A stretch of 64,000 nucleotides of DNA from Crassostrea angulata (GCF_025612915.1 NC_069115.1:8359492-8423491); one strand, 5' to 3'; numbered from the stretch's first letter, positions 17,301-53,635 are shown. Translations and numbers: made by a program. The notes: generated by a model not told the origin, from the sequence alone.

Positions 17301-17329
17301 TGGTCTCATTCGGGACAGGTATAGTATGG

Positions 17330-17363
<34 letters not shown>

Positions 17364-26300: not shown

Positions 26301-29300
26301 AAAAAAAAAATTATTAACAAATTTGAACATTTTTTTTATTTGAATTTGAAGATGGAAGAAGTGGGAGATTCCTATGAAGAATTTTTTGACGGAGGAGGAG
26401 GTGGAGGAGGAACAGAGAAAATTGAAAGTACTGAGGTATACATGTATATATAAATTATCATAACAGAAACTTGTTCCAAGGAGTCAATTCAGGTTGTGCT
26501 GCCAGGCCTAGATCATTAGATCAAAGGTCATTAGATGTTTCAATCAGGCCTGGCAACCACAATAGAATTATTTCATGATGATAAAATAATTATTATAATT
26601 TATGATGATGACTTTGGCTGACTACACAAGAGTCTCAATTGTCATCACGAATATTTCTTGCCTTAAACCAGTCTGGATGTAACAGGGCTTGGTCGTGATT
26701 AATATATAACATGATGATAAATATTAAATGATGATGAAATCATTACATAACCCATCTATTATTAAGGTAATAACATAACCCACCAATTATTAACTTTTTT
26801 AAAAGGTAATTTATTACAGAGCCCATATAAGGCCTCCAGATTACTTTAATTTTGATTGTTACTGAGTCTAAAATTTAAAGATTTAAATGTTGCAGGCAGG
26901 AACTAAACTTTTATTACAAGATAAATAAAGTTTTCTTATTAAAATTTTGAATAATCATAAATACCTGGTAATCATTACAGGGTTGTTCAATGTTGTCTGA
27001 TGATGATGAAGAAGACGACCTTCAACCCATAGTGATGGACATGGGCTCTCTCTTCATGAAGGCGGGGTTTGCTGGCGACGACACCCCTCGGGCCGAGTTT
27101 GAGACCACGGTAGGGCGACCCAGGCACCAGGGGGTCATGGTGGGCATGGGACAGAAGGATGCCTATGTTGGAAAGGAGGCCACAGGTAAGATAAATGTAA
27201 TCAAACAGGTTTCAGGTAGACTTGTGGAATCAAAGTCAATGGTAAGGCAATGAAATCATTGGTCACAGGTAAGACAATTTAATAAAAAAAAAAAAACACA
27301 GGTAAGATACTGTAAACAAAGGTCCAGATAAGACAATTTTTAAAACGTCACAGGTAAGATAAGTAAATCATAGGACACAGGTAAGACATGGTAATTTAAG
27401 GTTACATTACTTGTAAGACAAAGTGTTTGCTCTGGTAGGTTACATAAGACAGTGTGATTGTAGGTTACATGTAAGACAGTGTTTTAATTTATAGATTACA
27501 AACAAGACAATGTAATGGTAGGTTACAAAATACAGTGTGATCGTAAGTTACAGGTGATACATTGCAATCATAGTCACAGGTAAATACAGTTATGTAAATA
27601 ATTAAATATAGGATACAGGTAAGACAGAGTGGTGGTAAGTTTCATCTGAGACAGAGAGATAATTATTATTGTAGGTTAAAAAATAACCATTGGTTACAGA
27701 TAAGGTAATGTAAACAGAAGTCACAGGTCCCACTTAAAAAAGGACCAACAGGTTAGACTCACTCTCAGCTATAGGTAAAACAGTATGTCAGTCGTCATAA
27801 GTCACCAGATCACTCTCAGCTAGGTAAAACAGTATGTCAGTCGTCATAAGTCACCAGATCACTCTCAGCTAGGTAAAACAGTATGTCAGTCGTCATAAGT
27901 CACCAGATCACTCTCAGCTAGGTAAAACCATATGTCAGTCATCATAATTAGTCACCTGATATCTCAGATAGGTAAAACCATATGTCAGTCGTCATATAAG
28001 TCACCAGATCACTCTCAGCAAGGTAAAACAATATGGCAGTCGTCATAAGTCACCAGATCACTCTCAGCAAGGTAAAACAATATGTCAGTCATCATAATTG
28101 GTCACCAGATCACTCTCAGCTAGGTAAAACAATATGTCAGTCGTCATATAAGTCACCAGATCACTAGGTAAAACAATATGTCAGCCGTCATAAGTCACCA
28201 GATCACTCTCAGCTAGGTAAAACAATATGTCAGTCGTCATAAGTCACCAGATCACTCTCAGCTAGGTAAAACCATATGTCAGTCATCATAATTAGTCACC
28301 AGATCACTCTCAGCTAGGTAAAACCATATGTCAGCTGTCATAAGTCACCAGATCACTCTCAGCTAGGTAAAACCATATGTCAGCAGTCATAAGTCACCAG
28401 ATCACTCTCAGCTAGGTAAAACCATATGTCAGTCGTCATAAGTCACCAGATCACTCTCAGATAGGTAAAACAATATGGCAGTCGTCATAAGTCACCAGAT
28501 ATCTCAGATAGGTAAAACCATATGTCAGATGTCATATAAGTCACCAGATATCTCAGATAGGTAAAACAATATGGCAGTTGTCATAAGTCACCAGATCACT
28601 CTCAGCTAGGTAAAACAATATGGCAGTCGTCATAATTAGTCACCAGATATCTCAGCTAGGTAAACCAATATGTCAGTCGTCATAAGTCACCAGATCACTC
28701 TCAGCTAGGTAAAACCATATGTCAGTCGTCATAAGTCACCAGATCACTCTCAGCTAGGTAAAACAATATGTCAGTCGTCATAAGTCACCAGATATCTCAG
28801 ATAGGTAAAACAATATGGCAGTCGTCATAAGTCACCAGATCACTCTCAGCTAGGTAAAACAATATGGCAGTCGTCATAAGTCACCAGATCACTCTCAGCT
28901 TGGTAAAACAATATGTCAGTTGTCATAAGTCACCAGATCACTCTCAGCTAGGTAAAACAATATGGCAGTCGTCATAAGTCACCAGATGAGTAAAATAAGA
29001 GTTACTATTGAGGTTTTTCTTTTTACAAGTAGAATTTTTCAAAGTTTCTATTATACACATTTCATTTATTTCATTATCTTTGACTTTGGTAATAACTCTA
29101 TGCTACAGTAATTCAGTTACCATCATACAAAGATATTGTGAATTCAAGGTACAAAATGTTTGTGGAAATGGAAACTTAGAAAAGCTTACAATCATGACAA
29201 CTAATTCTAGTGTGTTCTTTTTACCAGGTTCCAAACCTATAGCTGGGAAAGTTTTAAAAGGAAAGTCACCAGGTATATTCACAAATGTACTACCAGTTAG

Positions 29301-31227
29301 TTTTAAACACATGATGATTCATCGCAAGGCATGATTACTCAGTTTGTTCTTTTAAGTTACTTTTATATTTTTGGACTGCAGGCAAACAGTGAAATTATAA
29401 CTTAATTAAATACAAATTTTAACTTAAATGTAATAGCTATGCATATCCAGTCCAATCCACACTTGGCAAAAGTTGTTTCCCTTCGCTGGGTCAACCCAAA
29501 GGTCAAAAGGGACAAAAACAACTTTTTCCTTCTAATTACGCAACCAAGTATTTTGGCGTTTTGTGATGAAATCTTTTTATTAGAATTTTATCTATTCCTT
29601 CGATATATGTGTTGCCTCATCTTGAGGCAATCAAAATAAGAACAGAAACGGAATTTTATTGTCAAATAACAAAGTTACTAACCTCTAAACTACAAAGGCT
29701 ACTGTGAGAAATCTATGGGTTTTTCCTCAAAGATGGCGGCCAAGGGACATAACTTTTGTAAAGCGTGGATTGGACTATTCCTAATTTGCCATTTTAACAA
29801 ATTTAAATGAAGAAAATTCGACACATACTGTTCTTTCTTTCAAAAAAAACCCCCATGTTCTTTGACTCTTGCTTTGCTTCATGCGTCAATTAATTATTTT
29901 AGGTAAATATCTTTACTAATCAACATTCAATTAAAGGTCCACACAATGGTTTGTGCATTTTACCTACCAGTATTAGTAATATATTTTGAATGTACATTCA
30001 GGTTCAGCATAAATTTATGGAGAGATTTTGAATAGGCCATGTCTTAATCAAACCCATGGGGATACTACATGTACATCTGGGAAAGACAACTATAATTTTA
30101 TTGTAATCTACATAGAGTACGTTAAAGTGACTTTAAATTTGATAAATAAATATACAATAATATATGAGCCCAATATTTTCCAGACTTATATATTTATAAA
30201 TTTATGCATATTTAATACATATCTACAATCAAAACAACATCTAGTCTATATTAGTTTTATTATGATACAGAAATTAATTATAGTAAACTTATTAAACTTA
30301 TTATAAATAAAATTTATGTGAAAAGAAAGAATAGTATTTTATGTGAAGAGAAAAAATAGTGACTTTAATTTATGAACAACATCTAATTACTGTACTTTCT
30401 TTATAGCTGATAAGGCCCAAGATAAAGTAGTGTTGCTTGGCAAAATGTCATCAGGTAAAAAAATTGATTCAGAATCAATTATTCAAATTTCAAATTTGAC
30501 TGTTAATTTCAAAATTTATTTAAAAAAAAAAAAGCTCTTTTAGACTTACTGTCTTACAAAAATTGGGGTTAAATAAATTTATTATTCTTTTCTTTGGTTA
30601 GTAGAAGAAATCAAGTCAAAAGTAACGAAATTAAAATCATAATATAAAAAATTGAGTAAACACACTGTCAGGCAATTTTTTGCCAATTATTATGTTGAAC
30701 AATATATGGCCATATTTGTTCAAATAACTTATATTTAAAAATGCTACAAAAAGTAATATCAAAACTGTTACCATGGTTACAGTAAATTATCAGTCAGACA
30801 TGTTTTTAAACAACTGGAACAAGAGAAATTAATTGTGTATTATTTTAATTAATAGAAAGGACGAAAAAGAAGCTAGCTGGTAAAGAAAAAAGTTACAGTA
30901 AAGTTTGCAGTAGTGATGAATCGGATGTTGATGATCTCGGATTTAATTTGTTTGGTGACGACGATGACGATGACGACTATGAGAGGCCGCAAAGTTTTAA
31001 ATCTACAGGCAAGTTTCTTTTGGTTTATGACATAATTAATACATTTACGTTAGCATAATTTTCTATTCAATGCCATGCAGTTCTGCAGAAATATCTATTT
31101 TGTTAAAAGGATTTGCTCTTTCAGTGTTGATTTGCTTCATACAGAATGTCAATGAATTATTATACCCCCCGCAAACAAAGTTTGGGGGGGTATATAGGAA
31201 TCACCTTGTCCGTCCGTCCGTCTGTCC

Positions 31228-31265
<38 letters not shown>

Positions 31266-34200
31266 CTGTGCAATCGTGTCCGGTCCATATCTTTCTTATG
31301 GAGAAACATTGGAAGTTCTTACTTCACACAAAGATTGCTTATGACCTAAGGGTGTGTCATGACCTTGACCCAAGGTCATTCGGGCAAGGTCAAGGTCACT
31401 GGCAGAAAAAGTGTAAAATTCGTGTCCGGTCCATATCTTTCTTATGGGGAAACATTGGAAGTTCTTACTTCACACAAAGATTGCTTATGACCTAAGGGTG
31501 TGTCATGACCTTGACCCAAGGTCATTCGTGCAAGGTCAAGCTCACTGGCAGAAAAAGTGCAAAATTCGTGTCCGGTCCATATCTTTCTTATGGAGAAACA
31601 TTGGAAGTTCTTACTTCACACAAAGATTGCTTATGACCTAAGGGTGTGTCATGACCTTGACCCAAGGTCATTTGGGCAAGGTCAAGGTCACTGGCAGAAA
31701 AAGTGCAAAATTCGTGTCCGGTCCATATCTTTCTTATGGGGAAACATTGGAAGTTCTTACTTCACACAAAGATTGCTTATGACCTAAGGCTGTGTCATGA
31801 CCTTGACCCAAGGTCATTTGGGCAAGGTCAAGCTCACTGGCAGAAAAAGTGCAAAATTCGTGTCCGGTCCATATCTTTCTTATGGGGAAACATTGGAAGT
31901 TCTTACTTCACACAAAGATTGCTTATGATTAAAGGGTGTGTTATGACCTTGACCCAAGGTCAATTGAGAAAGTTCAAGGTCATTGTTTCAAAAAAGCTAA
32001 ATTCTGTCTGTGTCATGTCTTGTATGAATGGAAATATAAGAAGCTAAAAATTAACAGTTTTCAAAAATAAAGCAGTTGTTATTTATAGAAAATGGACAGT
32101 GAAATAGATTCATCCAATATTTTCTATAATAGCAAAAATACACGCGTTATGATTTTTTTCTTAGCGGGGGGTATCAATTGTGAGCTTGCTCACAGTACCT
32201 CTAGTTTATATAAATATGTTTACTAAATTAAACAGATTTATCAAAATATTCATATCGTATCATGTACCTGGTGACATGTCGTATCATGTACCAGGTGACA
32301 TGTCGTATCATGTACTGGGTACTATGTCGTATCATGTACCTGGTGACATGTCGTATCATGTACCTGGTGACATGTCGTATCATGTACCTGGTGACATGTC
32401 GTATCATGTACCTGGTGACATGTCGTATCATGTACCTGGTATCATGTACCTGGTGACATGTCGTATCATGTACCTGGTGACATGTCGTATCATGTACCTG
32501 GTGACATGTCGTATCATGTACTGGGTACTATGTCGTATCATGTACCGGGTAACAAGTCGTATTATGTACCATATATTGTATTATGTACCGGATAACAGGT
32601 CAGTAGGAGATTTTAAATGTCTAAAGGAAACATAAAAAAAAATTACTGTATACAGGGAAATATTCCCCCCTGTTTTATTTTCGCCCCTTTCGCCCTCGTT
32701 GTCATTGGGCGAATTAATGACTGGGCAAGTTTCAATATCTCAAATTATCTGTTTTTAAACACAACTGTGTGCAGATGGGGCAAAACTTTAAGCAAGTGTA
32801 AGAAAGGCTAGTAATGAATTACACAATAAATTCAAATGTTAGTTATAAATGCATTGATTTGTTACTGTAAACAAAGACGACTGACCTTGGGCTACTAGGT
32901 ATTGTATACAGGGATATTTTCACCCGGTGTTATGTTTCCCTTTCAATGTCTTTCAACTTTTCAATATCAGGTCATGCACTCTATAATTATAATGATTTTT
33001 TTTTTGTTAAAGTTATAGGTTTAATAGTCCTTTATGACAGATTTCAGGCAGTTAGGTTGTCGTCGTTACAAATATTATGATTTAATTTTCTACTCCTTGT
33101 TTACATGACAAAGAATTGTGAGCCCTGTATCTTGCTTGTAACTCTACAACTGACTCTCAAATTTCATTTGATCATTAGATATACATTTCTAAAGCATTGT
33201 AAATAATAAAAACAGAAAATTGAATTTGACCAAAATCATGAGCGTGGTCCATTAAAATAAAATGATCTTTTACATTAATCAACTTCAGGAAGGATATCTA
33301 GTATAATTGGACAACCACTGTCTGCAAAAAATTTAAGAGTGGATACTTTTAAGCCACCAGAGGTACAACTCCAATCAGCTCCTTCTTCAATGTCTGGATT
33401 GGCATTACCCGGTGTGATGAGAGGGGGCGTTTCTTCCAGAAAGGTACATGGAAATGTGTCTAAAGGAGCAGTTCCAGCAGAGAAATCCAAAGGAGTTGGT
33501 TATGGGGCATCTGAAAGCTCTTTATCTGATCTAACAAAAACAGGATTTGGAAGGCTGTCACCACAGCCAACACAAGAAATATCTGAACAATCATTATTTG
33601 GATCAGGATTTGAAGTACCTCCACCGGAACAATCAAGAGATTTTCAATTTGGTCCATCATCACAAACAGGTCAGCCATCAGCACCTGCTGACCCAGTGTT
33701 TGGATCATCAACAGCAGGATTCGGAGCACGACCAATGATGGCATCACAGGCTATGGGAGGATCATTATTTGGATCAGGATTTGGAGCACCTCCATCGGAA
33801 CAATCAAGAGGTTTTCGATTCGGTCCATCACAAAGAGGTCAGCCATCAGCACCGGCTGGCCCAGTGTTTGGATCATCAACAGCAGGATTCGGAGCACGAC
33901 CAATGATGGCATCACAGGCTATGGGAGGATCGTTATTTGGATCAGGATTTGGAGCACCTCCATCGGAACAATCAAAAGGATTTGGATTTGGCTCCTCATT
34001 ACCCATGGTACAGTCATCAGCACCTCCTGTCCCAATGTTTGGATCATCAGCAGGATTTGGAGTACCACAACAGGCTGCTATGGGTGGATCGTTATTTGGA
34101 TCAGGATATGGAGCACCTCCATTGGAACAATTAAATGGATTCGGATTTGGTTCATCAATGGAACAGCCATCGCCACCTGGTGCTTCATCATTTGGGTCCT

Positions 34201-36890
34201 CACCAGCAGGATTTGGAGTACAGCAACAGACTTTTGGAGGATCATTATTTGGATCAGGAGGCAGAGCAATGCCACAAATATATTCACTACAGTCTGATAT
34301 GTCTTCAAGTGGTTTTGGGTTTGGAGTACCTAGAAATAGATCACAACCAGCTTCTCCTCCTCCTCCACCAGCCGCTCCTCCACTACCTCCTCCACCACCA
34401 GTAGGACAGTCCAGAGGGATTGGCTTTGAGGTATCACCAAGAAACGAAATGATTCCATGTGGACCTGAAATTATATCTAGAATGCAAGGAGCAACAGAAG
34501 GAGGGCTGCCACCAGCCGCTCCTCCTCCACCTCCACCACTGCATCCACAGTCATCACCACCAGCGCCTTCTCCACCTGCACCTTTGCATTCTTCACTTCT
34601 GCGTACACAATTTATGCCTCCACCGCCACAGTCTTCTCCACCACATCCACCAAAACCACGTCAATTATTGCAACAACAAATACAACGTGGAAAAATACTA
34701 AAAAAAGCAAGCCCGATCATACGCCCTGCTTCTTTTTGTGCAAATATAGCACTATCTGAGCCAATACTAGAAAGCCAACAGGAAATTACCCCATTATTAG
34801 ATCTTGAAGTTGATGAACTTTTACCTGATTTATACCAGAGACGTTTGGCAGCACCTCCATCTCCCCCGCCAATTTCAAGAAAAAAGTCGGAATCACCTAC
34901 ACCATTAAGTCAACAGTCTGAGAGTGATTCAGTGAGGGCTGTAAAACCTCGATTAAAAAAAAAAAAGCTGAAAAAAGAATTCACAATGGCACGTGATGCA
35001 GAAATTTCAGATGCAATTTCATATACAGAGGAAGAGCAAGATGCAAAGAAAAAACCATCTGGAGGTAAGTACAGACAAACATTAATTTGTTTTTAAATCA
35101 AACAAAATTTGTGTTCTGCAACTTACTATTATTTGGTAACTTTTGCTTTTATTTTTATATTCATTTGACAATGAGAGCAAATGAGGCAATAATAGAAAAT
35201 GTTGCAATAGATCCAAACATCCAAACAACACAGTATCCGTGTATAACATAACCATATAAAGCTTAACTGTTTTAAAAACTTAGTTTAAGGTATACATTTA
35301 CTCAGAATGAAAAAACATTTCACTGATGATAATGAAAAACCATCTATTCAGTGTTAAAGACATATCATGGTAGTGCTTCTTTTCACTTTCCAAAAAGTAG
35401 GTCAATGACCTACTTTTTGAGATAATGGCCATTGAATATTTTTTGAAAAATCAAGGAAAATCCCATAAAATTTTACACTATATCTGAAATTGTCTTAATT
35501 GTGAAAAAAAAAAATACAAATTGCGATCTGAATTTGAGAACTCAAACCCTGAGTAAACAACGTCCTTAATAATATTTCACAACACATCAAAATCATCATG
35601 TTGTAAATTCCTGTGCAGCATTATAGAAATAAGTTCTGGTATAGGTGTAGGTCACCTTAGCTGCTTTGGTAACAATTTAGTGAAAGTCAGTTAAATTTCT
35701 GAATTTTATATGCCAATCTAGGATGAAGTGCATGTTTAAAACACTTTGGTAAATTCAGACTTATTATATAAAATTTGTGTTGTAGAGTTCATCTTAAAAC
35801 AGTACTTAGCATCCCCTGATCGGAAAGCTAGAGGTCGTTCAATGGTGAGGCGGTCATTTACAGGAAAGCCGAAACAATCATCTAGTGAGGTGAGAGACTG
35901 TTTGCTTATTGATTGGAACATATGCATGTGTAGTAGGGTAAAGAGCATGGAAAGCTACTGCAGATATAGCACCATTACACAGTCAGGGTACTCAAAGTTA
36001 AAATAATGAGTTTTATAGAAATTATGACATACAGTCAGGCTTGGGGCGAATTACATTGTAAAGTAATGCATTGCATTACCATTACTTTATGAATTTGGGC
36101 ATTAAATTACCATTACCATTACTTGATTTTCTTGAAGTAATGCATTACATTACCATTACATGACTAAAGTAATGCATTACCATTACCATTACTTTGTTTT
36201 AAAAAATTAAAGCTAACTAAGAGTTTTTGTAAATGTTTCAAATATAAAACACTCTTTTAACATATCTACAGCTTCATGCTCAGTATCAGGTTCAAATTCA
36301 ATGACTATACAAGAGTCGATCATTCTTTATTTGCTCAATGTATAATCATCTTGTGGCATTATGAACAACTTATTACGTAAGTAAAATGAATAGATATTTA
36401 TATATAGACATTTGGCATGATACAATGTCAGATACAAAATAGAGACACAGAATTACATGCATAACAAAAAACAATTTATTGAATAATGTTGCGGTTATTA
36501 AAAGCTAAATAGAGATATTTCCCCAGATTACACAAATCTTTATAATTTTGGACACTTAATTGTATTAATTCATAAACAGATGGTTTTTCCCAGTAATATT
36601 CTTTCTATATTTTAATCGTATATCTTTTTACTGAGGACACTTTAAGACAAAAGATTGCTATTGCACTTTTTGATCGAAGTTTCAAAGGGTTCATCTTTTA
36701 ACTGCATCTTATTAGTTTGAAAATCTTCCCAGCTATACTAAATAAATGTTTTACAGGAGCAATCGAAGCTTGGACTGAAAAGTACTGTTTGACGATCTTT
36801 ATCTTAGAATATATTAATTGTGCAATAATAGAAAAAATACAAGAATCTTGTATTTTCTATCAGTCCAAACTAATGTACAGGATACTTAAT

Positions 36891-36949
<59 letters not shown>

Positions 36950-39900
36950 AGTAATTATTTTCAAATGGGTTATAATATTGGAAGTGATATTGATTTTCAT
37001 CGTGGATGGACAGTGCATTCACTTTGCTTTTAAAGGTGTATGTCTGTCTCCTATTCTATTGGGACATAGCGAAGGGAAGGGGATTGGGGTGTTTTGCACT
37101 TCTTATAACAATAGATTGTTTTGATACTTAGATTATCCTGGGGGCATAGTGTGTTGTTGACACATTTTTAATTGAAGTGCAAACTAATCGGAGTAAATTG
37201 TTTAAATGATTAAAAACTCTTAATAACAACACTCTTAAAAATGATATGAAATTGTGCTGTCATATTTAGTAATATTAACAATTCAAAAATGAATTTTTAA
37301 AAATCTTTTTTTAATAATACAATTAAATCATATTTATCCCAATAATTATCTCTTTCTCCTTTAAAATCAAATTTAATCAAATTCAATTTCAACTATTCAT
37401 TTATTCATCACATTTTTTAAAGTGAACATGCATAAATAAGCATAGTAATGCAAAGTAATGCCATGTAATGCCAGCATTACACTAGATTTTGGAAAGTAAT
37501 GAATTACATTACCATTACTTGTAATGCTAATTTAGTGGCATTACACATTACTAGCATTACTTTGAAATCATGTAATGCATTGCAATGCATTACCATTACA
37601 TTTAGCATTACCCCAAGCCTGCATACAGTATAACGAGTAAGTTCTGTCGTTGTTTATTTTCTGCGGTATTTTGTTCAGCTGCATGAATCCCTCTACTGAA
37701 ATTCTTGATCCCTGGGACAGGGGTTGAAGCTCTATGGTGGGACCAATATGGCCATATACTATTAGTTAAAATGTATTAAATCTTAGAAAATCTTCTTCTC
37801 TACTCCCACACATGTGGGCAAAAAACTGAATACATGGTTATGATGTCCACAAACTTATAATGTATTAAATCTTCTTCTTCACTCCCACATGTATTTTGGA
37901 AAAACCAAATTTTGAAATTAATGGTTCCTGGGTCAGTGGTTCGGCGGTAATGAAAATGTATTGATTAAATAAGTATTAAGTAAATGTACTATCGAACTTG
38001 AGAAAGATAAAGTCAAATATTGTAAAAAGTTAAGTTGTTAATTGCATGCGTTATTATGTTCACAATGTCCTGACGTTAAATTGTGAAATTGACTGCCCAA
38101 GCCATAGGAATTAAGTTGAGGTTTTTATTTTGGGGGGGTGGGGTAATTAGGGTAATTATGTGGGCTTTTCCTTTGCATTTTATACTTGTAATAAGCTGTA
38201 TGCATAAATGGAACTGTGATTATTATAAAAGATTGACTATTGAAGGCCTGCAGACTTTAGACTTCAAAATTAAGCTTAGAATTAAGCTGAAAATGCAAAC
38301 ACGGTCTGGTACTCAGGTGACCATAAGGCTTGTGGGCCTCTTGTTTTTATAACTCAACAATGAAATTGTTGAAAATAATACTAGGCATATGAATATTTTC
38401 TATTTTAAGAATGAAATGACAACACTGCTTTTACTGGATGTCACCCCTTTACCTCTTGGTGTGGAGGATGCAGATGGCAATTTTATTGAAATTGTTCCCC
38501 GAAACACCACCATACCTTGCAGAAAAAGCCAGGTCAGTGAGACTGTTAGTTCAGGGCTTTGCCTGAAACTGTGGATTCTTACTTGAATTTTATATTATAA
38601 TATGTGTAAAATTGCAAGATGCATAATTTATGTACACTTTGCAGATTTCAAAACTTTTTACTTAATATTGACAGATCTGTACTATTAATAATCAAACTTA
38701 ATAATAGAATATATGAGTTAGCAATTTTATATTCTCGCAATTTGATGCAAAATGGTCAATTCGCAGAATTACATGTAAATATTATAATAAATAAATCTTT
38801 AGTAATCAGTGTTATGGTTGCAGTTACTAGGGATGAGCCCTAGTCATTATTTGATCCAGCTGCGGGATGCATGTATCACTTTAGATCAAAAATATGTCAT
38901 GTATTAAATTTTATATATATCAATATAATAATGGCCAGTTATTTTGATAGGCTTCAGGTATGCTAAACTGATTGTACAGTAACTGTAATGTAATGGTTTA
39001 AAAATATAAAGCACACTCAGATTAAAGTTGTGGTAAATAATGAGAATACCATAATGATTCTTTAAATGAACTAAACAATCTTTTTTTATCAAGTGATCAT
39101 GTTTTGCAATTTTAGTGGTATAGGTATGTTCAAAAATTTTACTCAATAATTACCGTTCTGGAATTCACCTTTGCCTTTTTTTTGAATGCCAGTTAAAGAG
39201 ACATGGTGACTCAAACTTACATAATTCTTTTTTTGTAAAGATTTTTTATAAAATCAAAAAATTGGGAAGAAAGATAATCAAAGCCAAGTTATGTGCATTC
39301 ATCTGCACCAAAATGCAGACAAAAAATGTAATTTGAATGTCGGAAAAACGAAAATTACATGATCCAGAATGGTTTATAGTTTACGTCTAGCGTCATGTGA
39401 CTTTCTTCAACATCCATCTGTGATATTGGTTGCCAAGATATACATGTACCTTTGTTTGAATACAGCCGCCCTGTTCCTTTCTCGGGCGATCTTTTTCTTT
39501 ATGAAAAAACCTCGGTCTACCGACTTTTCGTTTTTCGTGGCTAGACTCCATGATTGTTTAATATGTTGTATATGCGCAATTGTAGAAGGAGGCACGAACA
39601 ATATTTACTGTTGGGCCAACAAGTAATTATATTTTTATCTGTAACAAATGAATTTTTACTTTATAAAACTTGTAATTTTGTGAAACTTCTTATGTTCAAG
39701 AACTGAACAAAATTTAGAAAAGCCACAGTGACCTAAAAATGTTGTTTTATCCAATTCACTTGTTTTTGCATCACCGTGTCTCTTTAATATTTTAATCATA
39801 TGATTATTTGACTGTAATATGCCATTAGATAAAATCTCAAAAACACATATCATACATGTACAATATGTGCAATACATGTACTACATATACATGTATCCTG

Positions 39901-42900
39901 TATTAGCTAAGACACACAACATTAACTGGCTTAGGACCCCAATACTTTCATACTTTTATTCTTTGTATTCTTCAGGCTTTCACATGTACTGATGCTGATC
40001 AGACTATGGCTGATATTCGAGTATATGAGGGCTGTTATAAAGAGGCCAAAAAGAACAACTTCCTGGGAAATCTACAGATTGTAAATAAACTAGTTTTAAT
40101 ATTAATCAAAACAGATTTTGTGTAATTAATGCATCAGTTGTATGACTCTGCTATTCTTGTTACAAAGTTTTGTTCTTAATGGAAATAGAAAGCAACTGAA
40201 TCCATCATCCATCTCTTGTCTGAAGTTGTTGAGACATTTGTTCAATAGATTTAACATCAATTAATATTCAGTCTACAAATGTATTCACAAGTCTGACTCA
40301 GATATTTTATTAAATCAAAACTGTACAATATTTATGAAAAGGAAAATATTGGAGGCACGACTGTGGGCAGCACTTGGGTCACTGTTACCATCGACATTGA
40401 TGCAAACGGTATAGTGACTGTGACTGTAAATGACTTAGAATCAGTCAGCCTGGGTTCATGTGAGTATCTTGTAGAAAAATTTAGACTAACTACATGAAAC
40501 TATAATTATTTTCCTTGCATACTCTGATCATCCTCAAGAGGCCATATAAAATGCCTCTTTCATGCATTTTTAAAGCCTATGATCAGTGCTGCCTAAGAGA
40601 TTGGAATTAATGAGAATTTACTTTCAAATTGCTTATACCGGTATAGTCATTACTTTCCATTTGAACAGTTACTGTAAATGCAGAAAAGAGAAAACTGAGC
40701 CGGGAACAAATAGAAAATATGATTGAGAATGCAGATAATGTCCAGTTTCCAGGCAAGGTAAGCAATTGCTATGGCTAGAGCCTGGAAGAAATAGCTATTT
40801 GCATAAATTGTAACCCCAATACTTTTGTCAAATTCTATGAACTCCATGAAGATATTAGGGAATGTGTTGATTAATAGGTAACTATAAGGTCATTGGGTGA
40901 AGGATTTTGATGTACCAGGTAGCATGTGGAAGGTGCATATCCTTGGACTAATTTTCTTTATTGAATTTCATTGTCTTAGCCCATACAGTTAAATCTTGGT
41001 ACCAGCTCTCACTCTAGTATGGATTGTGTTTGTGATGAGCTAATGACTTGGAGAGACCTATAATACATTGTTAAGTTACTGTAACAGTAGTACTGTTTAA
41101 TGATAGTAAATACACTAGACATTTTGTTTCTTGAATTGTTTTAAAACTTATATGCATTGCTTCAAACCCCCCAAAAACAATTTTTTCTAATCAAAGAAAA
41201 AATATCTTTGGATTATGCCATTGCATGTAGATTTGCCGTTGCTATGTTTGACTTTATTGTCTTTGAATGTAACAGGGGTGTTTATAAAATGTACATGTAT
41301 ATTCAATAAACATTAAAAAAAAATCATTACTAATGTCCTCACTGTGATCTTTAAAATGTTTTTTGTAGATTTCACCAAGAAGATTCCGACTACCAGCATT
41401 ACCAAGTGGACTGACAGAAAAAGGTAACTGTACAATCTAAACAATTCCTTCTCTCCACTGTACTACTGTACCTGTACAAGCACGTAGGATGCCATACATA
41501 CATATATTTCTATTGACTGATGTTCATTAATTTCTGTTTTGCATTGGCAGCTCTGGACGACATCAACAGCTATGGTATAGGGACGTCAGTTAGTAACATC
41601 AGGAAGAGGTCCCCCAACCTCAGCCTCTCCTCTCTCAGATCTGTGTTCAATATACAACAGGTATCCATCTCTCTCTTCCACTCCTTTGCTTCCTTTATTA
41701 TACAATATTTCAACTTTTTATTAAGAAGTCTACATTTATGACACAGAAGGAGTTTTTTGTCAACGTTTTTCACCCTTCTATTTGCAAATGTCTTGGCCCG
41801 TCATGAATTATCCCAGACTAATTTAGAAGTAGATACACTTTCTAAATAATACAGTTATTTGAAAATTGTTTTGAATATGTCCATTCTTAAATTCCCAATG
41901 ACATCAGGGTGAAAGGGGTAAAATTAAACAGGGCAAATATATTCTGCTATATACAGTATATCTATAAAAATTTACTTAAAAGTTTTTGGTTTTTAAATAT
42001 TTTCCAATGTCACATTGTCAATAAAGTCTCTTATACAATAGCAAGATAGCTGGCACATGCATCTATGTCTTTAAAATTGTCAAAGTCATACATGTAATTA
42101 TATAGTCATTAAAATTATGTCCAACAGAACAACTTATGGAAACTTGATGAGAGTTTGGAGGAAACTTTTGGAATTGATACAAAAAAATGCAGGGACATTC
42201 TTCAAAGAGCAGGTTTGCACTCGCTAGGTAAGTATTTGACAATAGTGTAAATACAATGTATTGTATATATGTGGGAGTCTCTTGACAAAGTGATAAGCAC
42301 CATAATTTATAATTAAAACTTAAGATATTATTTATTTGAAAAACCTTGAAACTGACCATGAAATTTAAATTAATTGAAAAATGTCATTCATTAGATAAAA
42401 GAAAAAGCTTCATTTTAATATTTTTTAAATATTAAATTTTTGAACATACTGGGTATGTTATGTAGTCAAGAGATTTTAATAAAAACTTAATTGACAGAAT
42501 ATATTATATGTACTAATATTTGAAAATCTCACCCTCATCTTGATCTTTAAGTCAAGTCTACTGTCACATACTAGCTGTTAGAATATTATCAATGTCATAA
42601 TTACATGTATGCATGTAGACAATATTTTCTCCAATTAAAAATTGGAAAATTGATTTTGGTTATTTGTGAATGTTATGATTGCATACCAGTGTGTACATGT
42701 TTTTAATATATACCTGTAATGAAGAGATAATTTTAATGCTTTTTACTACAGGTCAAAAAGTCTCTGAGGAAAGCATTGAAATCCTCTCCTCTGCACTGGC
42801 CCTGGTCCTCATTTACAAAGTGATTGCCCCAGAGTTATTCCCCATGGATTTTTCCAATCCAATTACGATTGCGACAGCGTTCCTAATGGGAGCCAAAAAG

Positions 42901-43104
42901 CTGGATGGAATGACAGCCGTGGGCGACATTTTGCCGTTACTGAAGAAATCAGTGGACACGTACATAGCCAAGAGGCAGAAATACGACTGGGTGTGCAGCA
43001 TGCTGGAATTAGGTCACTCTTGGGAGGAAGCGGCCTGTAAGATGCTGGGGTATACACAATCCTCTGTAAGGGACCCAGGACCTGTGTACATACCCGTTAT
43101 GTAA
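5227..43104 (+). CDS. PARP4: Vault poly(ADP-ribose) polymerase (PARP4)-like gene, span from ATG to stop; ~41 coding exons, ~2397 codons predicted
   Basis: Chain of GT-AG (one GC-AG) exons with mutually consistent phases; summed exon length is 7194 nt, which is 3 x 2398. Exon translations align with human PARP4 in order: BRCT, PARP regulatory and catalytic, VIT, vWA, C-terminal MVP-interacting-like region. Individual exons are listed below. Confidence 0.8.
6467..6665 (+). CDS. PARP4: PARP4-like exon 2 (BRCT continued)
   Basis: [54 protein letters not shown]... resembles human CTHIILDNADVLSQYQLNSIQKNHVHIANPDFIWKSIREKRLLDVKNY; acceptor TCTAG, donor GTAGGT. Confidence 0.7.
7703..7851 (+). CDS. 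PARP4: PARP4-like exon 3
   Basis: ...[17 protein letters not shown] resembles human LPQDFEVAKYNTLEK; phase-consistent acceptor CAAAG at 7701-7702, donor GTATAT. Confidence 0.5.
8055..8140 (+). mobile_element. tRNA-derived SINE-like fragment
   Basis: actcagtggttaaagtattgggcttgtgaaccccagatcaagagttcgaatctgcttgggg has D-loop-like and T-loop-like (gagttcgaatc) boxes; related copy on the minus strand at 58025-58090 (ggcttgtgaaccgcaaatcacgagttcgaatccgcaatggg). Confidence 0.4.
8381..8521 (+). CDS. PARP4: PARP4-like exon 4
   Basis: [47 protein letters not shown]; acceptor CACAG, donor GTGAGA; 47 codons, phase 0. Confidence 0.6.
9005..9169 (+). CDS. PARP4: PARP4-like exon 5
   Basis: [32 protein letters not shown]... 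resembles human RRQFAIKKTSEDASEYFENYIEELKKQ; donor GTACGA. Confidence 0.65.
9315..9452 (+). CDS. PARP4: PARP4-like exon 6 (PARP regulatory helical region)
   Basis: ...[33 protein letters not shown] resembles human DLVEMIWAEALGHLEHMLLKPVNRISLND; donor GTGAGC. Confidence 0.7.
9599..9766 (+). CDS. PARP4: PARP4-like exon 7
   Basis: [13 protein letters not shown]...[18 protein letters not shown]...[10 protein letters not shown] resembles human KAEGILLLVKAALKNGE..LQKMMTEFYRLIPHKG...LLAKKADLCQ. Confidence 0.75.
9967..10115 (+). CDS. PARP4: PARP4-like exon 8
   Basis: [15 protein letters not shown]...[13 protein letters not shown] resembles human LIRDMVNVCETNLSK..AKYRALRCKIEHV; donor GTGAGT, ends with 2 extra nt. 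Confidence 0.75.
10267..10401 (+). CDS. PARP4: PARP4-like exon 9 (PARP catalytic)
   Basis: ...[19 protein letters not shown] resembles human NVRPLLHGSPVQNIVGILCR. Confidence 0.75.
10516..10614 (+). CDS. PARP4: PARP4-like exon 10 (PARP catalytic)
   Basis: [32 protein letters not shown] resembles human GLLLPKVVEDRGVQRTDVGNLGSGIYFSDS; donor GTGTGT. Confidence 0.8.
11102..11285 (+). CDS. PARP4: PARP4-like exon 11 (PARP catalytic)
   Basis: [51 protein letters not shown] resembles human STSIKYSHPGETDGTRLLLICDVALGKCMDLHEKDFSLTEAPPGYDSVHGV. Confidence 0.8.
12186..12351. repeat. ~165-bp foldback palindrome
   Basis: aaacaataaaatgctttctttgttgattcattcgggttatgaaggtagc ... gctaccttcatatcccgaatgaatcaacaaagaaagcattttattgttt; arms are reverse-complementary with ~1 mismatch. 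Confidence 0.85.
12803..12947 (+). CDS. PARP4: PARP4-like exon 12 (end of catalytic domain)
   Basis: [20 protein letters not shown] resembles human DDEFVVYKTNQVKMKYIIKF; donor GTGAAT. Confidence 0.8.
13240..13370 (+). CDS. PARP4: PARP4-like exon 13 (start of VIT)
   Basis: [44 protein letters not shown] resembles human SSSTKAGLQDASGNLVPLEDVHIKGRIIDTVAQ; donor GTAAAC. Confidence 0.7.
14035..15305 (+). repeat. 72-bp minisatellite x ~17.5, unit is the copied 3' splice site plus first 30 nt of PARP4-like exon 14
   Basis: Unit attgattgtaatagtacatcagtatttggttcggttgtcag|gtggtggtgttacaagagtaccacaacaac; the last unit runs straight into real exon 14 at 15306; it produces a spurious 457-aa repeat ORF. 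Confidence 0.9.
15306..15530 (+). CDS. PARP4: PARP4-like exon 14 (VIT domain)
   Basis: [68 protein letters not shown] resembles human [68 protein letters not shown]; the acceptor is the last unit of a 72-bp minisatellite. Confidence 0.85.
15886..16056 (+). CDS. PARP4: PARP4-like exon 15 (VIT)
   Basis: [26 protein letters not shown]... resembles human [26 protein letters not shown]; weak donor GTCTCT. Confidence 0.75.
16362..16472 (+). CDS. PARP4: PARP4-like exon 16
   Basis: [37 protein letters not shown]; 37 codons; a partial duplicate with its own acceptor lies ~100 bp upstream. Confidence 0.6.
16679..16816 (+). CDS. PARP4: PARP4-like exon 17
   Basis: ...[26 protein letters not shown] resembles human GFSLHIGLSAAYLPRMWVEKHPEKESE. 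Confidence 0.75.
17132..17318 (+). CDS. PARP4: PARP4-like exon 18 (vWA start)
   Basis: [32 protein letters not shown]... resembles human EACMLVFQPDLDVDLPDLASESEVIICLDCSSSMEG. Confidence 0.8.
17333..17362. repeat. (GA)15 microsatellite
   Basis: Read directly; other dinucleotide runs: (GA)9 6259-6276, (AT)n 13645-13672, (GA)26 36895-36946, (CT)20 51909-51949. Confidence 0.95.
17539..17612 (+). CDS. PARP4: PARP4-like exon 19 (vWA)
   Basis: [25 protein letters not shown]; long poly-T tract before acceptor; donor GTCTGC. Confidence 0.55.
17712..17899 (+). CDS. PARP4: PARP4-like exon 20 (vWA)
   Basis: ...[37 protein letters not shown] resembles human GSRNILLVSDGHLQDESLTLQLVKRSRPHTRLFACGI; weak donor GTTTCT. 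Confidence 0.7.
18262..18361 (+). CDS. PARP4: PARP4-like exon 21 (vWA)
   Basis: [34 protein letters not shown] resembles human GSTANRHVLRILSQCGAGVFEYFNAKSKHSWRKQ; donor GTAAAT. Confidence 0.8.
18588..18755 (+). CDS. PARP4: PARP4-like exon 22
   Basis: [24 protein letters not shown]...[11 protein letters not shown] resembles human IEDQMTRLCSPSCHSVSVKWQQLN...LVYGFIPHCTQ. Confidence 0.65.
18986..19066 (+). CDS. PARP4: PARP4-like exon 23
   Basis: [27 protein letters not shown] resembles human ATLCALIQEKEFRTMVSTTELQKTTGT. Confidence 0.6.
19405..19485 (+). CDS. PARP4: PARP4-like exon 24
   Basis: [27 protein letters not shown] resembles human MIHKLAARALIRDYEDGILHENETSHE; donor GTAAAT. Confidence 0.8.
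20058..20159 (+). CDS. PARP4: PARP4-like exon 25
   Basis: [34 protein letters not shown] resembles human MKKQTLKSLIIKLSKENSLITQFTSFVAVEKRDE. Confidence 0.75.
20400..21260 (+). repeat. Tandem repeat, ~185-bp unit x ~4.7, in a PARP4-like intron
   Basis: Repeated unit taccctcattgtacggataactcctcctacagttttcaagataggaagttgttcttttgtggatcaatt...taccagcttttgaacttagtcattttttggcaaaatattg. Confidence 0.85.
21260..21790 (+). repeat. Degenerate tandem repeat, ~130-bp unit x ~4 (aaggtcaaggtcat-containing family)
   Basis: Units tcttctctct..tggcccaatcttgctcat..cacagagtg..tgtgcagtgacctt..aaggtcaaggtcat recur with divergence; the motif is shared with the 147-bp satellite at 31262-31990. Confidence 0.6.
22134..22226 (+). 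CDS. PARP4: PARP4-like exon 26
   Basis: [31 protein letters not shown] resembles human ESPFPDIPKVSELIAKEDVDFLPYMSWQGE; donor GTAATG. Confidence 0.8.
24760..24876 (+). CDS. PARP4: PARP4-like exon 27 (acidic linker)
   Basis: [39 protein letters not shown]; phase 0 to 0, AG acceptor and GTAAAT donor; no homology, supported by frame continuity only. Confidence 0.4.
26352..26435 (+). CDS. PARP4: PARP4-like exon 28 (acidic/Gly linker)
   Basis: [28 protein letters not shown]; phase 0; donor GTATAC. Confidence 0.4.
26981..27185 (+). CDS. PARP4-like exon 29: actin N-terminal-like segment
   Basis: ...[57 protein letters not shown] resembles actin residues ~5-65 ([50 protein letters not shown]); acceptor TTACAG, donor GTAAGA, in phase with neighbours. 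Confidence 0.5.
27186..27720 (+). repeat. Decaying array (~14 copies) of the exon-29 donor motif TCACAG|GTAAGACA
   Basis: Real donor gccacag|gtaagat at 27185/27186, then ggtcacaggtaagacaa, aacacaggtaagatac, cgtcacaggtaagataag, ggacacaggtaagacatg, ggttacatgtaagacag, gtcacaggtaaatac, ggatacaggtaagacag ... Confidence 0.75.
27770..28990 (+). repeat. 49-bp minisatellite x ~25 (gtcaccagatcactctcagctaggtaaaacaatatgtcagtcgtcataa)
   Basis: Direct tandem copies with minor variants; each unit contains the donor-like string ag|gtaaaac. Confidence 0.9.
30407..30454 (+). CDS. PARP4-like exon 30 (small)
   Basis: (A)[15 protein letters not shown](G); acceptor TTATAG, donor GTAAAA; phase 1 to 1, consistent with neighbours. 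Confidence 0.3.
30856..31008 (+). CDS. PARP4-like exon 31 (acidic), candidate GC-AG intron
   Basis: [51 protein letters not shown]; the only phase-consistent donor is GCAAGT at 31009. Confidence 0.3.
31160..32175. mobile_element. Candidate composite non-autonomous element: short TIR tatacccccgc/gcggggggtat enclosing (GTCT)n and a 147-bp satellite x ~4.8
   Basis: (GTCT/GTCC)n 31213-31262; unit cgtgtccggtccatatctttcttatgg..gaccttgacccaaggtcatt..ggtcaaggtcactggcagaaaaagtg repeated 31262-31990; the 11-bp terminal inverted match is weak. Confidence 0.3.
32255..32590 (+). repeat. 24-bp minisatellite x ~13 (gtcgtatcatgtacctggtgacat)
   Basis: Direct tandem copies with variants ..catgtactgggtactat.. 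Confidence 0.9.
33289..35064 (+). CDS. PARP4-like exon 32: large low-complexity exon ([14 protein letters not shown] repeats, polyproline, WH2-like motif)
   Basis: 592-codon open exon, acceptor CTTCAG and donor GTAAGT. About 4 tandem ~56-aa repeats [21 protein letters not shown]...; [15 protein letters not shown] and [13 protein letters not shown] tracts; [16 protein letters not shown] fits the WH2 pattern LLxxIxxGxxLKK. Composition recalls the FGS/P-rich disordered region of human PARP4. Confidence 0.55.
35786..35889 (+). CDS. PARP4-like exon 33: Hsp70 NBD-fragment-like
   Basis: (E)[34 protein letters not shown] resembles Hsp70 NBD [36 protein letters not shown]; acceptor TTGTAG, donor GTGAGA. 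Confidence 0.45.
36036..37621. mobile_element. Non-autonomous hAT-like DNA transposon, 1586 bp, 11-bp TIR caggcttgggg, 8-bp TSD catacagt
   Basis: Left end catacagt|caggcttggggcgaattacattgtaaagtaatgcattgcattaccattac; right end ...gtaatgcattgcaatgcattaccattacatttagcattaccccaagcctg|catacagt; many subterminal gtaatgcattac/attaccattac repeats; internal (GA)26; no ORF. Confidence 0.75.
38410..38532 (+). CDS. Hsp70 substrate-binding-domain-like exon H1
   Basis: [41 protein letters not shown] against Hsp70 [37 protein letters not shown]; donor GTCAGT; phase 0. Confidence 0.6.
39976..40080 (+). CDS. Hsp70 SBD-like exon H2
   Basis: [35 protein letters not shown] against Hsp70 [35 protein letters not shown]; donor GTAAAT. 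Confidence 0.6.
40342..40459 (+). CDS. Hsp70 SBD-like exon H3
   Basis: [39 protein letters not shown] against Hsp70 [40 protein letters not shown]; the acceptor position is uncertain, donor GTGAGT. Confidence 0.5.
40669..40757 (+). CDS. Hsp70 SBD-like exon H4
   Basis: (F)[29 protein letters not shown] against Hsp70 [30 protein letters not shown]; acceptor GAACAG, donor GTAAGC. Confidence 0.55.
41369..41423 (+). CDS. PARP4-like exon (small, linker)
   Basis: [18 protein letters not shown]; acceptor TTTGTAG, donor GTAACT; supported by phase only. Confidence 0.3.
41551..41660 (+). CDS. PARP4-like exon (linker)
   Basis: (A)[36 protein letters not shown]; acceptor TTGGCAG, donor GTATCC; supported by phase only. 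Confidence 0.35.
42128..42227 (+). CDS. PARP4: PARP4-like penultimate exon (MVP-interacting-like C-terminus)
   Basis: [33 protein letters not shown] resembles human DGFWKLTPELGLILNLNTNGLHSFLKQKGIQSL; donor GTAAGT. Confidence 0.7.
42752..43104 (+). CDS. PARP4: PARP4-like terminal exon with stop TAA 43102-43104
   Basis: [23 protein letters not shown]...[26 protein letters not shown] resembles human GVKGRECLLDLIATMLVLQFIRT...ICPRLELGNDWDSATKQLLGLQ; the ORF runs from the acceptor to the stop. Confidence 0.7.
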
Positions 43105-46915: not shown

Positions 46916-48956
46916 CTTCAAAAATCAATATGATTACAATCATGTTCATCCAAGAAAATGAGAATACGTCGCTTTAAATTTTGAATTATAGAAAAAGAAT
47001 TTTTACAGTAACTATTAATTTTCTCTCTAACACTCTGTTCAATTTTATATACACAATATACCTCCTGTAGAAATTCTTCCTCTGCATTAGTGTAAAACAA
47101 GGGACTGTTCTTCTGGCCTTTCTGTCTGTACGTTTTACATACAAGAATGTAGTAGGCAAAGTCATACTTCATTTTCTTATTTTTGCATTTCTCCACTTCT
47201 TTTCTAGTTGAAAAAAATGAACAATATATTGACATTCATTTTTTCTAGATTTTATCCTCCTAAAATAGATCCTTCATGCAATACTGTAAATTCCTAATTA
47301 AACGTGAGGAATTAATATCCGTGCTGGAAGCACCCCTCGCAGATTTTAAAATCTTGCTTTTATTTTCTGAGAGTTGAGAATTATAAGAGATTAGGATAAC
47401 AGTTCTGCATTTGCGATTATATATTCTCGCGTTCTGATACAAAACACCGGGATTGCGTAATTAAGTACTCTTGTAAAATAAGGAATCTACTGTAATACAC
47501 ATGAAAACCAGACTTTACTTAAACCAACGATACAAACATGGGGAGAGATATCTGTGGGAAGGATGTTAATGTATTAAAAAAACATAGACCAGTCAGTCTG
47601 ACTATACTTACAACAATGATTCAAACATGGGGACAGCTAACTGTGGGGGGATGTTGATGTATCTCTCACTGACCAGCAGCCCCACATGGTGGCCCCCATC
47701 ATTGAGCACCTTGCTAAATCTTGGATCCCCTCCACACTTCTGACACTGATCTATCAGCATGGAACGGACCTGCTTTACACACTCCATATCCTGACAACAG
47801 AAACAGTACCATAACATTATTCAGGATCATAGCTGCAGGACCGTAGCTCCCAAGTCTGAAAAAAATTTTGATAGAAAACCTGAGAGCTACAGTTCCTTAT
47901 GTGTTAAAAAATTGCAATTTACAGCACACAAATATTGTTTATTGTTTTGGACTGCTTTTGGATTAATTTTCAGTTATATGTTGTTGTTATGTACCAGGGA
48001 CTTCCATACGTATATGTAGACCATTTTACTGCGATCAAACCGAGAATTGGTCCCTGATTGGGGCCAGTAATTTTTTTAGGGATAAGTATATTTTGACGGA
48101 CTTCTGGTCCTACTGGCCTTAAGTTTTCATGAAGACTGATTTCATCCATGTGTAATGAGTCCACAGTGTTAGTGATATTGTGTTGACCTCTGACCTTTTT
48201 TGTTTGTGACACTGATAACTGAAGTAGTGTAATGTTGTGTTGACCTCTGACCTTTTTGTCTGTGATGTTGATAACTGAAGTAACAGCGAGGACTGGGTCA
48301 TCTTCTGCCATCTCCTCATCATCCTCATCTTCTTCTGGAACATAGGATTGCTAACGGAGAAAATCATCAAGAGATGCAACAAACTTCCTTAGATATCAAT
48401 AATTCATGTACATGTATTACCGTCTCAACAAGTCACTCACACACACATGTTGTATATGGTTGTATTTGACAACAATTTAATCTACTTATGATTTAATTGA
48501 ACGGGTAATAATGAAGTGATGAGCAACGGTTTTACTTGTACTTGATTATAATGTTAAACGTGTTAAATGTGAAGGAATGCTTTTCATTATTCTGGTAGTT
48601 AAATCATTAGAGTCTTTTCAACATGAAAATCTGGAATTGTAAGAGTAAAACAGATCTGATGATGTGACCTTGACTTTGGTCAAATGTCCTCAGGTCAAGG
48701 TAACAATTAAACTTTAATGCCAAGTTGAAACTATGAATCTGATGTTTTTAATGTAAAAAGCATGGATCTGACACCGAAATGGAATGAATAAACAGACAAA
48801 CATAGATGATAATTCCAACCACAATTCCTATATACCTGTCAATTTACTTTATATAAATTGGTATAAATTCATTTTTTTAAATTAAAAATTATTTAAAATC
48901 TTGCATACCTTTACGACACTGCCAACTTGTCCTTGGGAAATAATGATGTCTGCCAT
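46745..48956 (-). CDS. BCCIP: BCCIP-like gene (BRCA2 and CDKN1A-interacting protein homolog), span, ~5 coding exons, ~286 aa
   Basis: Minus-strand exon translations align with human BCCIP: VGLLVSERYINIPPQLAVPMFESL against VGLLLSERFINVPPQIALPMYQQL; LFYTNAEEEFLQE against LMFANAEEEFFYE; FQYSVQAERDTVVAGSWDAED against FNYSVQEESDTCLGGKWSFDD. Confidence 0.75.
47062..47203 (-). CDS. BCCIP: BCCIP-like exon 4
   Basis: (L)KEVEKCKNKKMKYDFAYYILVCKTYRQKGQKNSPLFYTNAEEEFLQE resembles human QKELAGAHRTNKPCGKCYFYLLISKTFVEAGKNNSKKK...ALMFANAEEEFFYE; acceptor CAACTAG, donor GTATAT. Confidence 0.7.
47612..47790 (-). CDS. BCCIP: BCCIP-like exon 3
   Basis: DMECVKQVRSMLIDQCQKCGGDPRFSKVLNDGGHHVGLLVSERYINIPPQLAVPMFESL resembles human TQCVEQIQELVLRFCEKNCEKSMVEQLDKFLNDTTKPVGLLLSERFINVPPQIALPMYQQL; donor GTAAGT. 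Confidence 0.75.
48030..48350 (-). CDS. BCCIP: BCCIP-like exon 2 (acidic N-terminal region, contains an in-frame 57-nt tandem duplication)
   Basis: QSYVPEEDEDDEEMAEDDPVLAVTSVINITDKKVRGQHNITLLQLSVSQTKKVRGQHNITNTVDSLHMDEISLHENLRPVGPEVRQNILIPKKITGPNQGPILGLIA; the acidic stretch resembles the human N-terminal acidic region; phase-0 GTAAAA donor; the lower boundary is uncertain. Confidence 0.5.
48909..48956 (-). CDS. BCCIP: BCCIP-like putative exon 1 (MADIIISQGQVGSVVK)
   Basis: ATG in a good Kozak context (CAGAAATGG) followed in phase by GTATGC donor; needed because exon 2 is open upstream of its first Met up to an AG acceptor preceded by a stop; speculative. Confidence 0.3.
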
Positions 48957-53420: not shown

Positions 53421-53422
53421 GT

Positions 53423-53635
53423 ATGGAACAGGGAAATTTAGACAAAAATGGAGACGTTTCTGAAGAAACACAACCAGCGGATGAAGATGTTGCTAAGTCG
53501 ACTGGCGAGCATCACTCAACAGAGGAAGCTTCCGAGAAGAAAAAGAAGGTCGGGAGTTACATTCTCGGGAAAACTTTGGGCGAGGGATCGTTTGCTAAAG
53601 TTCGTCAAGGCGTCCATCTTTTAGCACATGAAAAG
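53423..53635 (+). CDS. HUNK: HUNK-like exon 1 (N-terminal extension, Gly-loop and VAIK lysine region)
   Basis: [71 protein letters not shown]; donor GTAAGA at 53636. Confidence 0.8.

Follow-up and report, generated by a model that had tools for sequence, protein, structure and literature searches.

We analyzed a 64,000-nucleotide stretch of Crassostrea angulata DNA (GCF_025612915.1 NC_069115.1:8359492-8423491), referred to below as the window. This AT-rich eukaryotic DNA (34% GC) carries the exons of a vault PARP (PARP4) gene together with four exon-like segments, H1 to H4, which match the beta part of the substrate-binding domain (SBD) of the chaperone Hsp70. A reading made by a model from these letters alone, which we call the sequence-only reading, had proposed that Hsp70-derived exons are spliced in frame into a PARP4-like gene. 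The elements on which the argument turns are the following, with human HSPA1A as the reference for the Hsp70-like segments.

5227-20159, + strand: N-terminal two-thirds of PARP4, with BRCT, PARP catalytic, VIT, vWA and ITIH-like exons (Pfam and tblastn)
38410-38532, + strand: H1, interdomain linker LLLLDV and first part of SBD-beta; HSPA1A ~387-426; phase 0-0
39976-40080, + strand: H2, continuation of SBD-beta with VYEG and NNFLG; HSPA1A 427-461; phase 0-0
40342-40459, + strand: H3, continuation of SBD-beta with IDIDANGI; HSPA1A 462-500; phase 0-1
40669-40757, + strand: H4, last SBD-beta segment and first lid helix; HSPA1A ~500-530; phase 1-0

The host gene is a vault PARP

The BRCT, PARP catalytic, VIT and vWA exons were found by Pfam in PARP4 order, upstream of the Hsp70-like exons and on the same strand, as the sequence-only reading had it. 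In tblastn, a full-length PARP4 of the unionid Potamilus (P0137) aligns collinearly to the segment 5227-20159 through its residues 209-1408. The H-Y-E catalytic triad is kept, and the motifs FHAS, GIYFA and DEFVVY are present.

An alignment of the C-terminal exons to the human PARP4 C-terminus had also been claimed, and the best PDB match of this region is indeed human PARP4 1582-1710, although the match is weak (E=0.017). An exhaustive HMMER search with the same C-terminus retrieved proteins named PARP4 by NCBI in scallop, chiton, nemertean and amphioxus. Because of these two sets of matches, we assign the C-terminus to the MVP-interacting domain (MVP-ID) of PARP4. A local Pfam scan gave no match to the MVP-ID profile PF26156, which precomputed annotation lists, weakly, for the orthologue from Pinctada, and a word-indexed search with the C-terminus returned only open reading frame (ORF) fragments from unassembled genomic contigs.

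Four exons encode a complete Hsp70 SBD-beta

The spliced H1-H4 peptide matches the Pfam HSP70 profile with E=3.7e-30, but only over positions 378-516 of 599; a longer spliced construct gives E=2e-29 over positions 378-517 only. The same peptide matches the solved SBDs of human HSP70, Hsc70, BiP, mortalin and DnaK (E=1e-26 to 1e-20), in alignments that are essentially gap-free and without large insertions or deletions. Together, H1-H4 span approximately HSPA1A 387-530, which comprises the LLLLDV linker, all of SBD-beta (to ~507) and helix A. The homology ends at ~HSPA1A 523-530, in helix A or at the start of helix B, and the exons that follow are PARP4-specific. The profile and structure matches, along with translations of H1-H3 that read as previously quoted, bear out the proposal that the four exons make up a whole SBD-beta; the HSP70 profile search had itself been suggested as a check.

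The features of the Hsp70 family are thus divided at this locus: the linker and SBD-beta are present, while the ATPase nucleotide-binding domain (NBD), lid helices B-E and the C-terminal tail are absent. When full-length HSPA1A was compared with the 64-kb window by tblastn, the four SBD exons matched and nothing else Hsp70-like did; no NBD segment appeared in the window even at E<50. The HSPA1A query, like the canonical Hsp70s used for identity comparisons, was entered by hand. The signatures VYEG, NNFLG and DIDANGI, together with the ranking of scores, favour a donor of the cytosolic type. The intron positions within H1-H4 appear unlike those of human HSPA8, at about residues 373, 441 and 507. 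Word-indexed homologue searches returned only generic Hsp70 fragments (36-45% identity) with the spliced SBD, and only one near-identical contig with the H1 ORF.

The Hsp70-like exons join the PARP4 reading frame

The exons on either side of H1-H4 are as follows.

33279-35064, + strand: FG/Pro-rich linker exon; the 5' limit is the start of the ORF and not a mapped acceptor; donor G/GTAAGT at 35064, phase 1
35786-35889, + strand: exon U, putative Ser/Arg-rich linker exon bridging the linker exon to H1; phase 1 to 0; canonical splice sites
41369-41423, + strand: X4b, micro-exon of 55 nt, absent from the sequence-only reading and needed for the frame; phase 0-1
41551-41660, + strand: X5, conserved N-terminal extension of the MVP-ID, ending FNIQQ; phase 1-0
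42128-42227, + strand: X6, start of the MVP-ID, with AGLHSL; phase 0-1
42752-43104, + strand: X7, last exon, MVP-ID; stop codon at 43102-43104

An AG acceptor and a GT donor flank each of the five exons first proposed (U and H1-H4). H1, H2 and H3 are read in frame 1, H4 and exon U in frame 3, and the phases (U 1-0, H1 0-0, H2 0-0, H3 0-1, H4 1-0) chain without a frameshift, with a TTT (Phe) codon split over the H3/H4 junction. H1-H4 contain 145 codons and zero stops despite the low GC content, and the ends of the Hsp70 homology coincide exactly with canonical GT-AG sites.

Phase continuity had been asserted in both directions. It holds for the chain of U and H1-H4 and for the upstream linker exon, but downstream it holds only with X4b: a direct junction from H4 to 41551-41660 is out of frame, H4 ending in phase 0 and X5 starting in phase 1. 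X4b was found through L001, a contig from a more distantly related species with 54% identity in the last exon, where a 55-nt exon of phase 0-1 precedes the exon with the GIG motif. Its homologues have the same phase and read FYSKTSELPSLPRIRIEE+G in L001 and NEEKGSVCYKLPAVE+G in Pinctada. Because X4b leads from phase 0 to phase 1, it restores the frame from H4 to the C-terminus, and 33279-35064, U, H1-H4, X4b, X5, X6 and X7 form a single ORF of 980 codons in which all junctions are GT-AG. The [YF]GIG motif of X5 also occurs in Potamilus, P0135 and P0139.

If U through X4b (594 nt) were skipped, the frame would likewise be preserved, so the Hsp70 block may be an alternative cassette. The L001 contig ends ~95 nt upstream of X4b and is therefore uninformative on the SBD in that species; a possible H4-like end in it has an in-frame stop 10 codons upstream.

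Exon U is not an Hsp70 NBD fragment

The sequence-only reading had also taken 35786-35889 for Hsp70 NBD residues ~245-280, an assignment that we withdraw. The HSP70 profile envelope begins only at H1. Aligned to HSPA1A, exon U has a Smith-Waterman score lower than the average of 2000 shuffles (p ~0.9), no NBD match was found by tblastn (E<50), and none of the intronic ORFs, including that of exon U (at E<=1), has a Pfam match. In Pinctada, the linker immediately before the SBD is marginally similar to exon U (p=0.04 against shuffles).

A 2.5-kb intron (35890-38409), with a (GA)n microsatellite near 36900, parts the Ser-rich spacer exon from H1, whereas the spacer and H1 are one exon in Pinctada. 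An intron has been gained or lost exactly where the Hsp70-derived sequence starts.

The insertion is shared with Pinctada

HMMER retrieved a protein of Pinctada imbricata, KAK3096544.1 (P0129), with the UniRef name "PARP4 MVP-ID C-terminal domain-containing protein". It contains, in order, a Pro/FG-rich linker, a Ser-rich spacer, an Hsp70 SBD, a short LPAVEG segment, a GIG segment and the MVP-ID. It matches Pfam HSP70 with E=1.9e-35 (profile 376-518), and its precomputed Pfam annotation gives HSP70 and PARP4_MVP-ID. At the Pinctada locus (L004), the introns H1/H2, H2/H3 and H3/H4 lie at the same codon positions and in the same phases as in the window, and all their sites are canonical. The boundaries of H2 and H3 are identical to those in Pinctada, H2 corresponding to exon 19032-19148 there and H4 to exon 21891-21953. 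X4b and X5 together score 72 against Pinctada, compared with 21+/-4 for shuffled sequences, and 0 of 5000 shuffles reach this value. The Pinctada locus likewise lacks an Hsp70 NBD.

The question raised earlier, whether the insertion is conserved in relatives, is thereby answered for Pinctada, which has it in the same place with three shared intron positions. Two alternatives had been offered to explain the exons. The acquisition of a chaperone module by vault PARP is supported, while the conservation in Pinctada argues against a decayed Hsp70 gene that was exonised recently.

The SBDs of the window and Pinctada are 41% identical, and each is 34-45% identical to canonical Hsp70s, whereas the canonical classes, bacterial to human, are 59-71% identical to one another; raw identity fails to group the window and Pinctada SBDs together. 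Identity in the MVP-ID is ~30-35%. The comparison indicates a long divergence during which the ORF, the splice sites and the frame to the PARP4 exons were kept in two lineages, and such retention argues against a decaying pseudogene.

The Pinctada SBD is confidently predicted to fold

We further examined the predicted fold, using the AlphaFold model of the Pinctada orthologue rather than of the window's own SBD. Residues 1-411 are disordered; 412-546 form eight strands and one helix at a predicted local distance difference test score (pLDDT) of 84-95; 546-578 form a disordered tether of ~35 residues; and 580-740 form a confident helical MVP-ID. In a Foldseek comparison, the sandwich superposes on SBD structures of Hsp70/DnaK at 1.7-2.0 A across ~132 residues. 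The Pinctada orthologue is thus confidently predicted to adopt the SBD fold. At what we take to be the cleft positions 401/426/433/438 (DnaK numbering), both the window and Pinctada have V/F/Q/I, and at the presumed position 436 the window has A and Pinctada has V.

Exons differ more than introns between near-identical contigs

Two contigs that are 98.5-98.9% identical to the window (L002, L003) keep the ORFs intact. Frame-shifting differences in other individuals had been named as a sign against the insertion, and the H1 ORF is intact in the independent contig L003 (98.9% identical). Between H1 and L003, 4/123 bp are substituted (2 synonymous, 2 nonsynonymous), compared with 3/807 in the flanking intron (p=0.007). 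The last exon (42752-43101) differs from a near-identical contig at 9/350 bp and by a 6-nt indel, compared with 3/991 in the intron (p=0.0005). Exons therefore show an eight- to nine-fold excess of substitutions over introns, which affects synonymous and nonsynonymous changes alike; some of them are clustered. These counts are small, and the pattern does not serve as evidence of constraint.

Other contents of the linker and neighbouring genes

The 1.8 kb of low-complexity FG/Pro-rich repeats at 33279-35064 weakly resemble Nucleoporin_FG, at a level under the curated cut-off (E=1.8e-5). The same FG-like similarity is probably why NCBI gives the name POM121 to the Aplysia orthologue of this C-terminal region.

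The linker region also holds an exon-like ORF on the PARP4 strand (26972-27250, +) that matches the N-terminus of actin, with homology over 27029-27202. After an acidic start it follows actin residues 8-65, including the D-loop (67% identity, tblastn E=2e-19; Pfam Actin positions 2-60, E=1.7e-11). No other actin exons were found in the window. P0142, a transcript-like contig protein from another species with a C-terminal MVP-ID, has MRRPQGVMVGMAP in its linker.

At 30849-31055 (+), an acidic run is followed by a MGFGLFD-type motif, also found in P0129, P0132, P0133 and P0145; its counterparts are EEEEMGFGLFEDD in Argopecten, SDEDMEFGLFDQ in amphioxus and DDDMAFSLFDD in Pinctada. We presume a resemblance to the conserved C-terminal tail of the ribosomal stalk P proteins. 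When the acidic MGFGLF motif was compared with PDB sequences, no match was returned, probably because of the low-complexity filter.

Tandem repeat arrays occupy PARP4 introns at 13967-15551, 27900-29000, 31100-32000 and 32165-32632 and yield long spurious ORFs, for example one of 457 aa at 13967-15337. Two further genes follow PARP4 in the window.

47611-48350, - strand: BCCIP-like gene (Pfam BCCIP E=1.2e-13)
~53414-62289, + strand: Ser/Thr kinase with a SIK-type UBA region (Pkinase E=1.4e-13; weak UBA_SIK3 match)

Discussion

We consider it probable, as a joint judgement, that H1-H4 are real coding exons of a PARP4 gene in a bivalve-type genome and that, in an ancestor of this species and the pearl oysters, the disordered linker of PARP4 received part of an Hsp70 gene of the cytosolic type. 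As far as sequence comparison can tell, a vault PARP has here gained, long ago and in a restricted lineage, a conserved peptide-binding module of Hsp70 that has no ATPase. The inserted part would have comprised the hydrophobic interdomain linker, the whole SBD-beta sandwich and the first lid helix; the ATPase domain, the remaining lid and the EEVD tail would have been left out. The insertion site lies ~55 residues upstream of the helical MVP-ID, the part that docks PARP4 inside the vault shell.

No chaperone cycle would be possible, because the ATPase and the lid are absent. The module might instead act as an ATP-independent lidless clamp, exchanging rapidly on extended hydrophobic peptides and held beside the vault wall by the MVP-ID. 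Its ligands could be clients or ADP-ribosylation substrates, the protein's own FG-rich linker, or the LLLLDV of a neighbouring PARP4; by analogy with lid-truncated BiP, binding of LLLLDV in the cleft could lead to head-to-tail association.

Several points weigh against an ancestral, functional insertion. MVP-ID proteins of Potamilus, Argopecten, Ylistrum, Liolophura, Tubulanus, Branchiostoma and Aplysia lack the Hsp70 domain, so it must be dispensable for PARP4 generally and its gain lineage-restricted. The linker exons between 20159 and 33279 were not resolved by guide-protein alignment, and the ORF is shown only from 33279 to the stop. KAK3096544.1 is an automated model of 742 aa that begins inside the linker and has no PARP catalytic part. 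Inclusion of the exons in this species' PARP4 mRNA is predicted from genomic DNA. The 2 nonsynonymous and 2 synonymous changes in H1 are too few to show constraint. Finally, several canonical residues are altered, among them the arch position Y431 to T, V438 to A, and the PPAPRGVPQ loop; peptide binding is not assured.

Of the other explanations, the one that survives best, although we think it unlikely, is that an internal promoter gives a separate shorter protein made of linker, SBD and MVP-ID, a vault-targeted peptide binder unjoined to the catalytic half. The Pinctada model would suit such a product, as it starts with a Met in the Pro-rich linker and has no PARP4 N-terminal homology within 10 kb upstream; so would the Aplysia (903 aa) and Ylistrum (701 aa) entries, which are likewise linker and MVP-ID only, and so would a demonstrated ORF in the window that does not cross 20159-33279. 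However, PARP4 of Potamilus, Liolophura and Tubulanus is as a rule full-length and ends in an MVP-ID, and Argopecten models join vWA to the MVP-ID. The catalytic half in the window precedes the linker exon on its strand, with no other gene recognised on that strand between them. Short database models are, moreover, frequently truncated annotations.

Still less probable is the remnant of an Hsp70 gene fragment in a PARP4 intron, surviving as unspliced pseudo-exons or as neutral passengers strung together by gene predictors: splicing predicted from genomic sequence, the strong divergence from canonical Hsp70s, the weak polypyrimidine tract of H3 and the absence of the domain from most PARP4 orthologues would all allow it, but neutral AT-rich DNA should have a stop about every 14 codons where 145 are open, the homology stops exactly at GT/AG sites in phases that fit the flanking PARP4 exons, and Pinctada, despite its divergence in both SBD and MVP-ID, keeps the exons, intron positions and frame compatibility in a domain predicted to fold with high confidence.

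On top of the ancestral insertion of an Hsp70 module, a bolder proposal may be made, to which we give little credence: the PARP4 linker could be a string of baits copied from host proteins that toxins or viruses target, making vault PARP an effector trap or sensor. The candidate baits would be the Hsp70 SBD, the actin N-terminal/D-loop exon (27029-27202) and the acidic, P-stalk-like MGFGLFD-type motif. The QGVMVGM remnant of actin is also found in the linker of another species, and the MGFGLFD-type motif from amphioxus to bivalves. The surplus of substitutions that H1 and the MVP-ID exon show over their flanking introns would be in keeping with an arms race, as would the known positive selection of the primate PARP4 linker.

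For decades it has been unclear what vaults and their PARP do. A natural and conserved fusion of a chaperone domain to a vault-docking domain would offer a "Rosetta stone" hint on the function of vault PARP: in at least some bivalves, it may handle extended or unfolded polypeptide, or self-assemble through such segments, inside the vault. It would also be a clear case of an Hsp70 SBD long surviving without its ATPase, which is relevant to the capabilities of the isolated domain in a cell.

Comparison with known systems

Human and vertebrate PARP4 (vPARP) has the order BRCT-WGR-HD-ART-ITIH-like (VIT and vWA)-disordered linker-MVP-ID, and at the place of the insertion the human protein has only the disordered, fast-evolving linker (PMC10450202). 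The window gene shares the order of BRCT, H-Y-E catalytic, VIT, vWA, linker and C-terminal helical MVP-ID, and its insertion falls within the stretch that in primates is disordered and evolves fast. From the ITIH-like region to the MVP-ID, human PARP4 lacks any folded domain, whereas the window gene has an Hsp70 SBD ~55 residues before the MVP-ID; an actin-derived exon and FG-like repeats further set its linker apart from the human one. A survey of PARP evolution leaves Hsp70 unmentioned in the vPARP clade (PMC2964712), and our full-text literature searches found no description of an Hsp70-PARP4 fusion. The Pinctada protein is already in public databases, with automated domain labels only.

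That protein is a close counterpart in layout, sharing the Pro/FG-rich linker, the Ser-rich spacer, the SBD, an LPAx micro-exon, the GIG exon and the MVP-ID. It differs in that the spacer and H1 are unsplit and in that the database model is without the catalytic half.

Canonical Hsp70s (HSPA1A/HSPA8, BiP, mortalin, DnaK; PF00012) share with the window domain the LLLLDV linker, the eight-strand sandwich and helix A, without large gaps. VYEG, NNxLG and DIDANGI are closest to the cytosolic class, and most hydrophobic pocket positions are kept. Canonical Hsp70s have, however, the NBD, lid helices B-E and the EEVD tail, which the window domain lacks. Because this domain is embedded in another protein and has no NBD, the ATP-driven client cycle and its control by J-proteins and nucleotide exchange factors would not apply.

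Lid-truncated Hsp70 constructs exchange the peptides that they bind rapidly and can form head-to-tail chains, with the linker of one inserted into the cleft of the next. Such constructs of Hsp70, BiP and DnaK (e.g. PDB 7a4u, 5obv) resemble the window domain in having SBD-beta without most of the lid and in keeping the hydrophobic linker. They are laboratory-made and keep the ATPase, whereas the form encoded in the window would be natural, conserved, NBD-less and fused to a vault-targeting domain.

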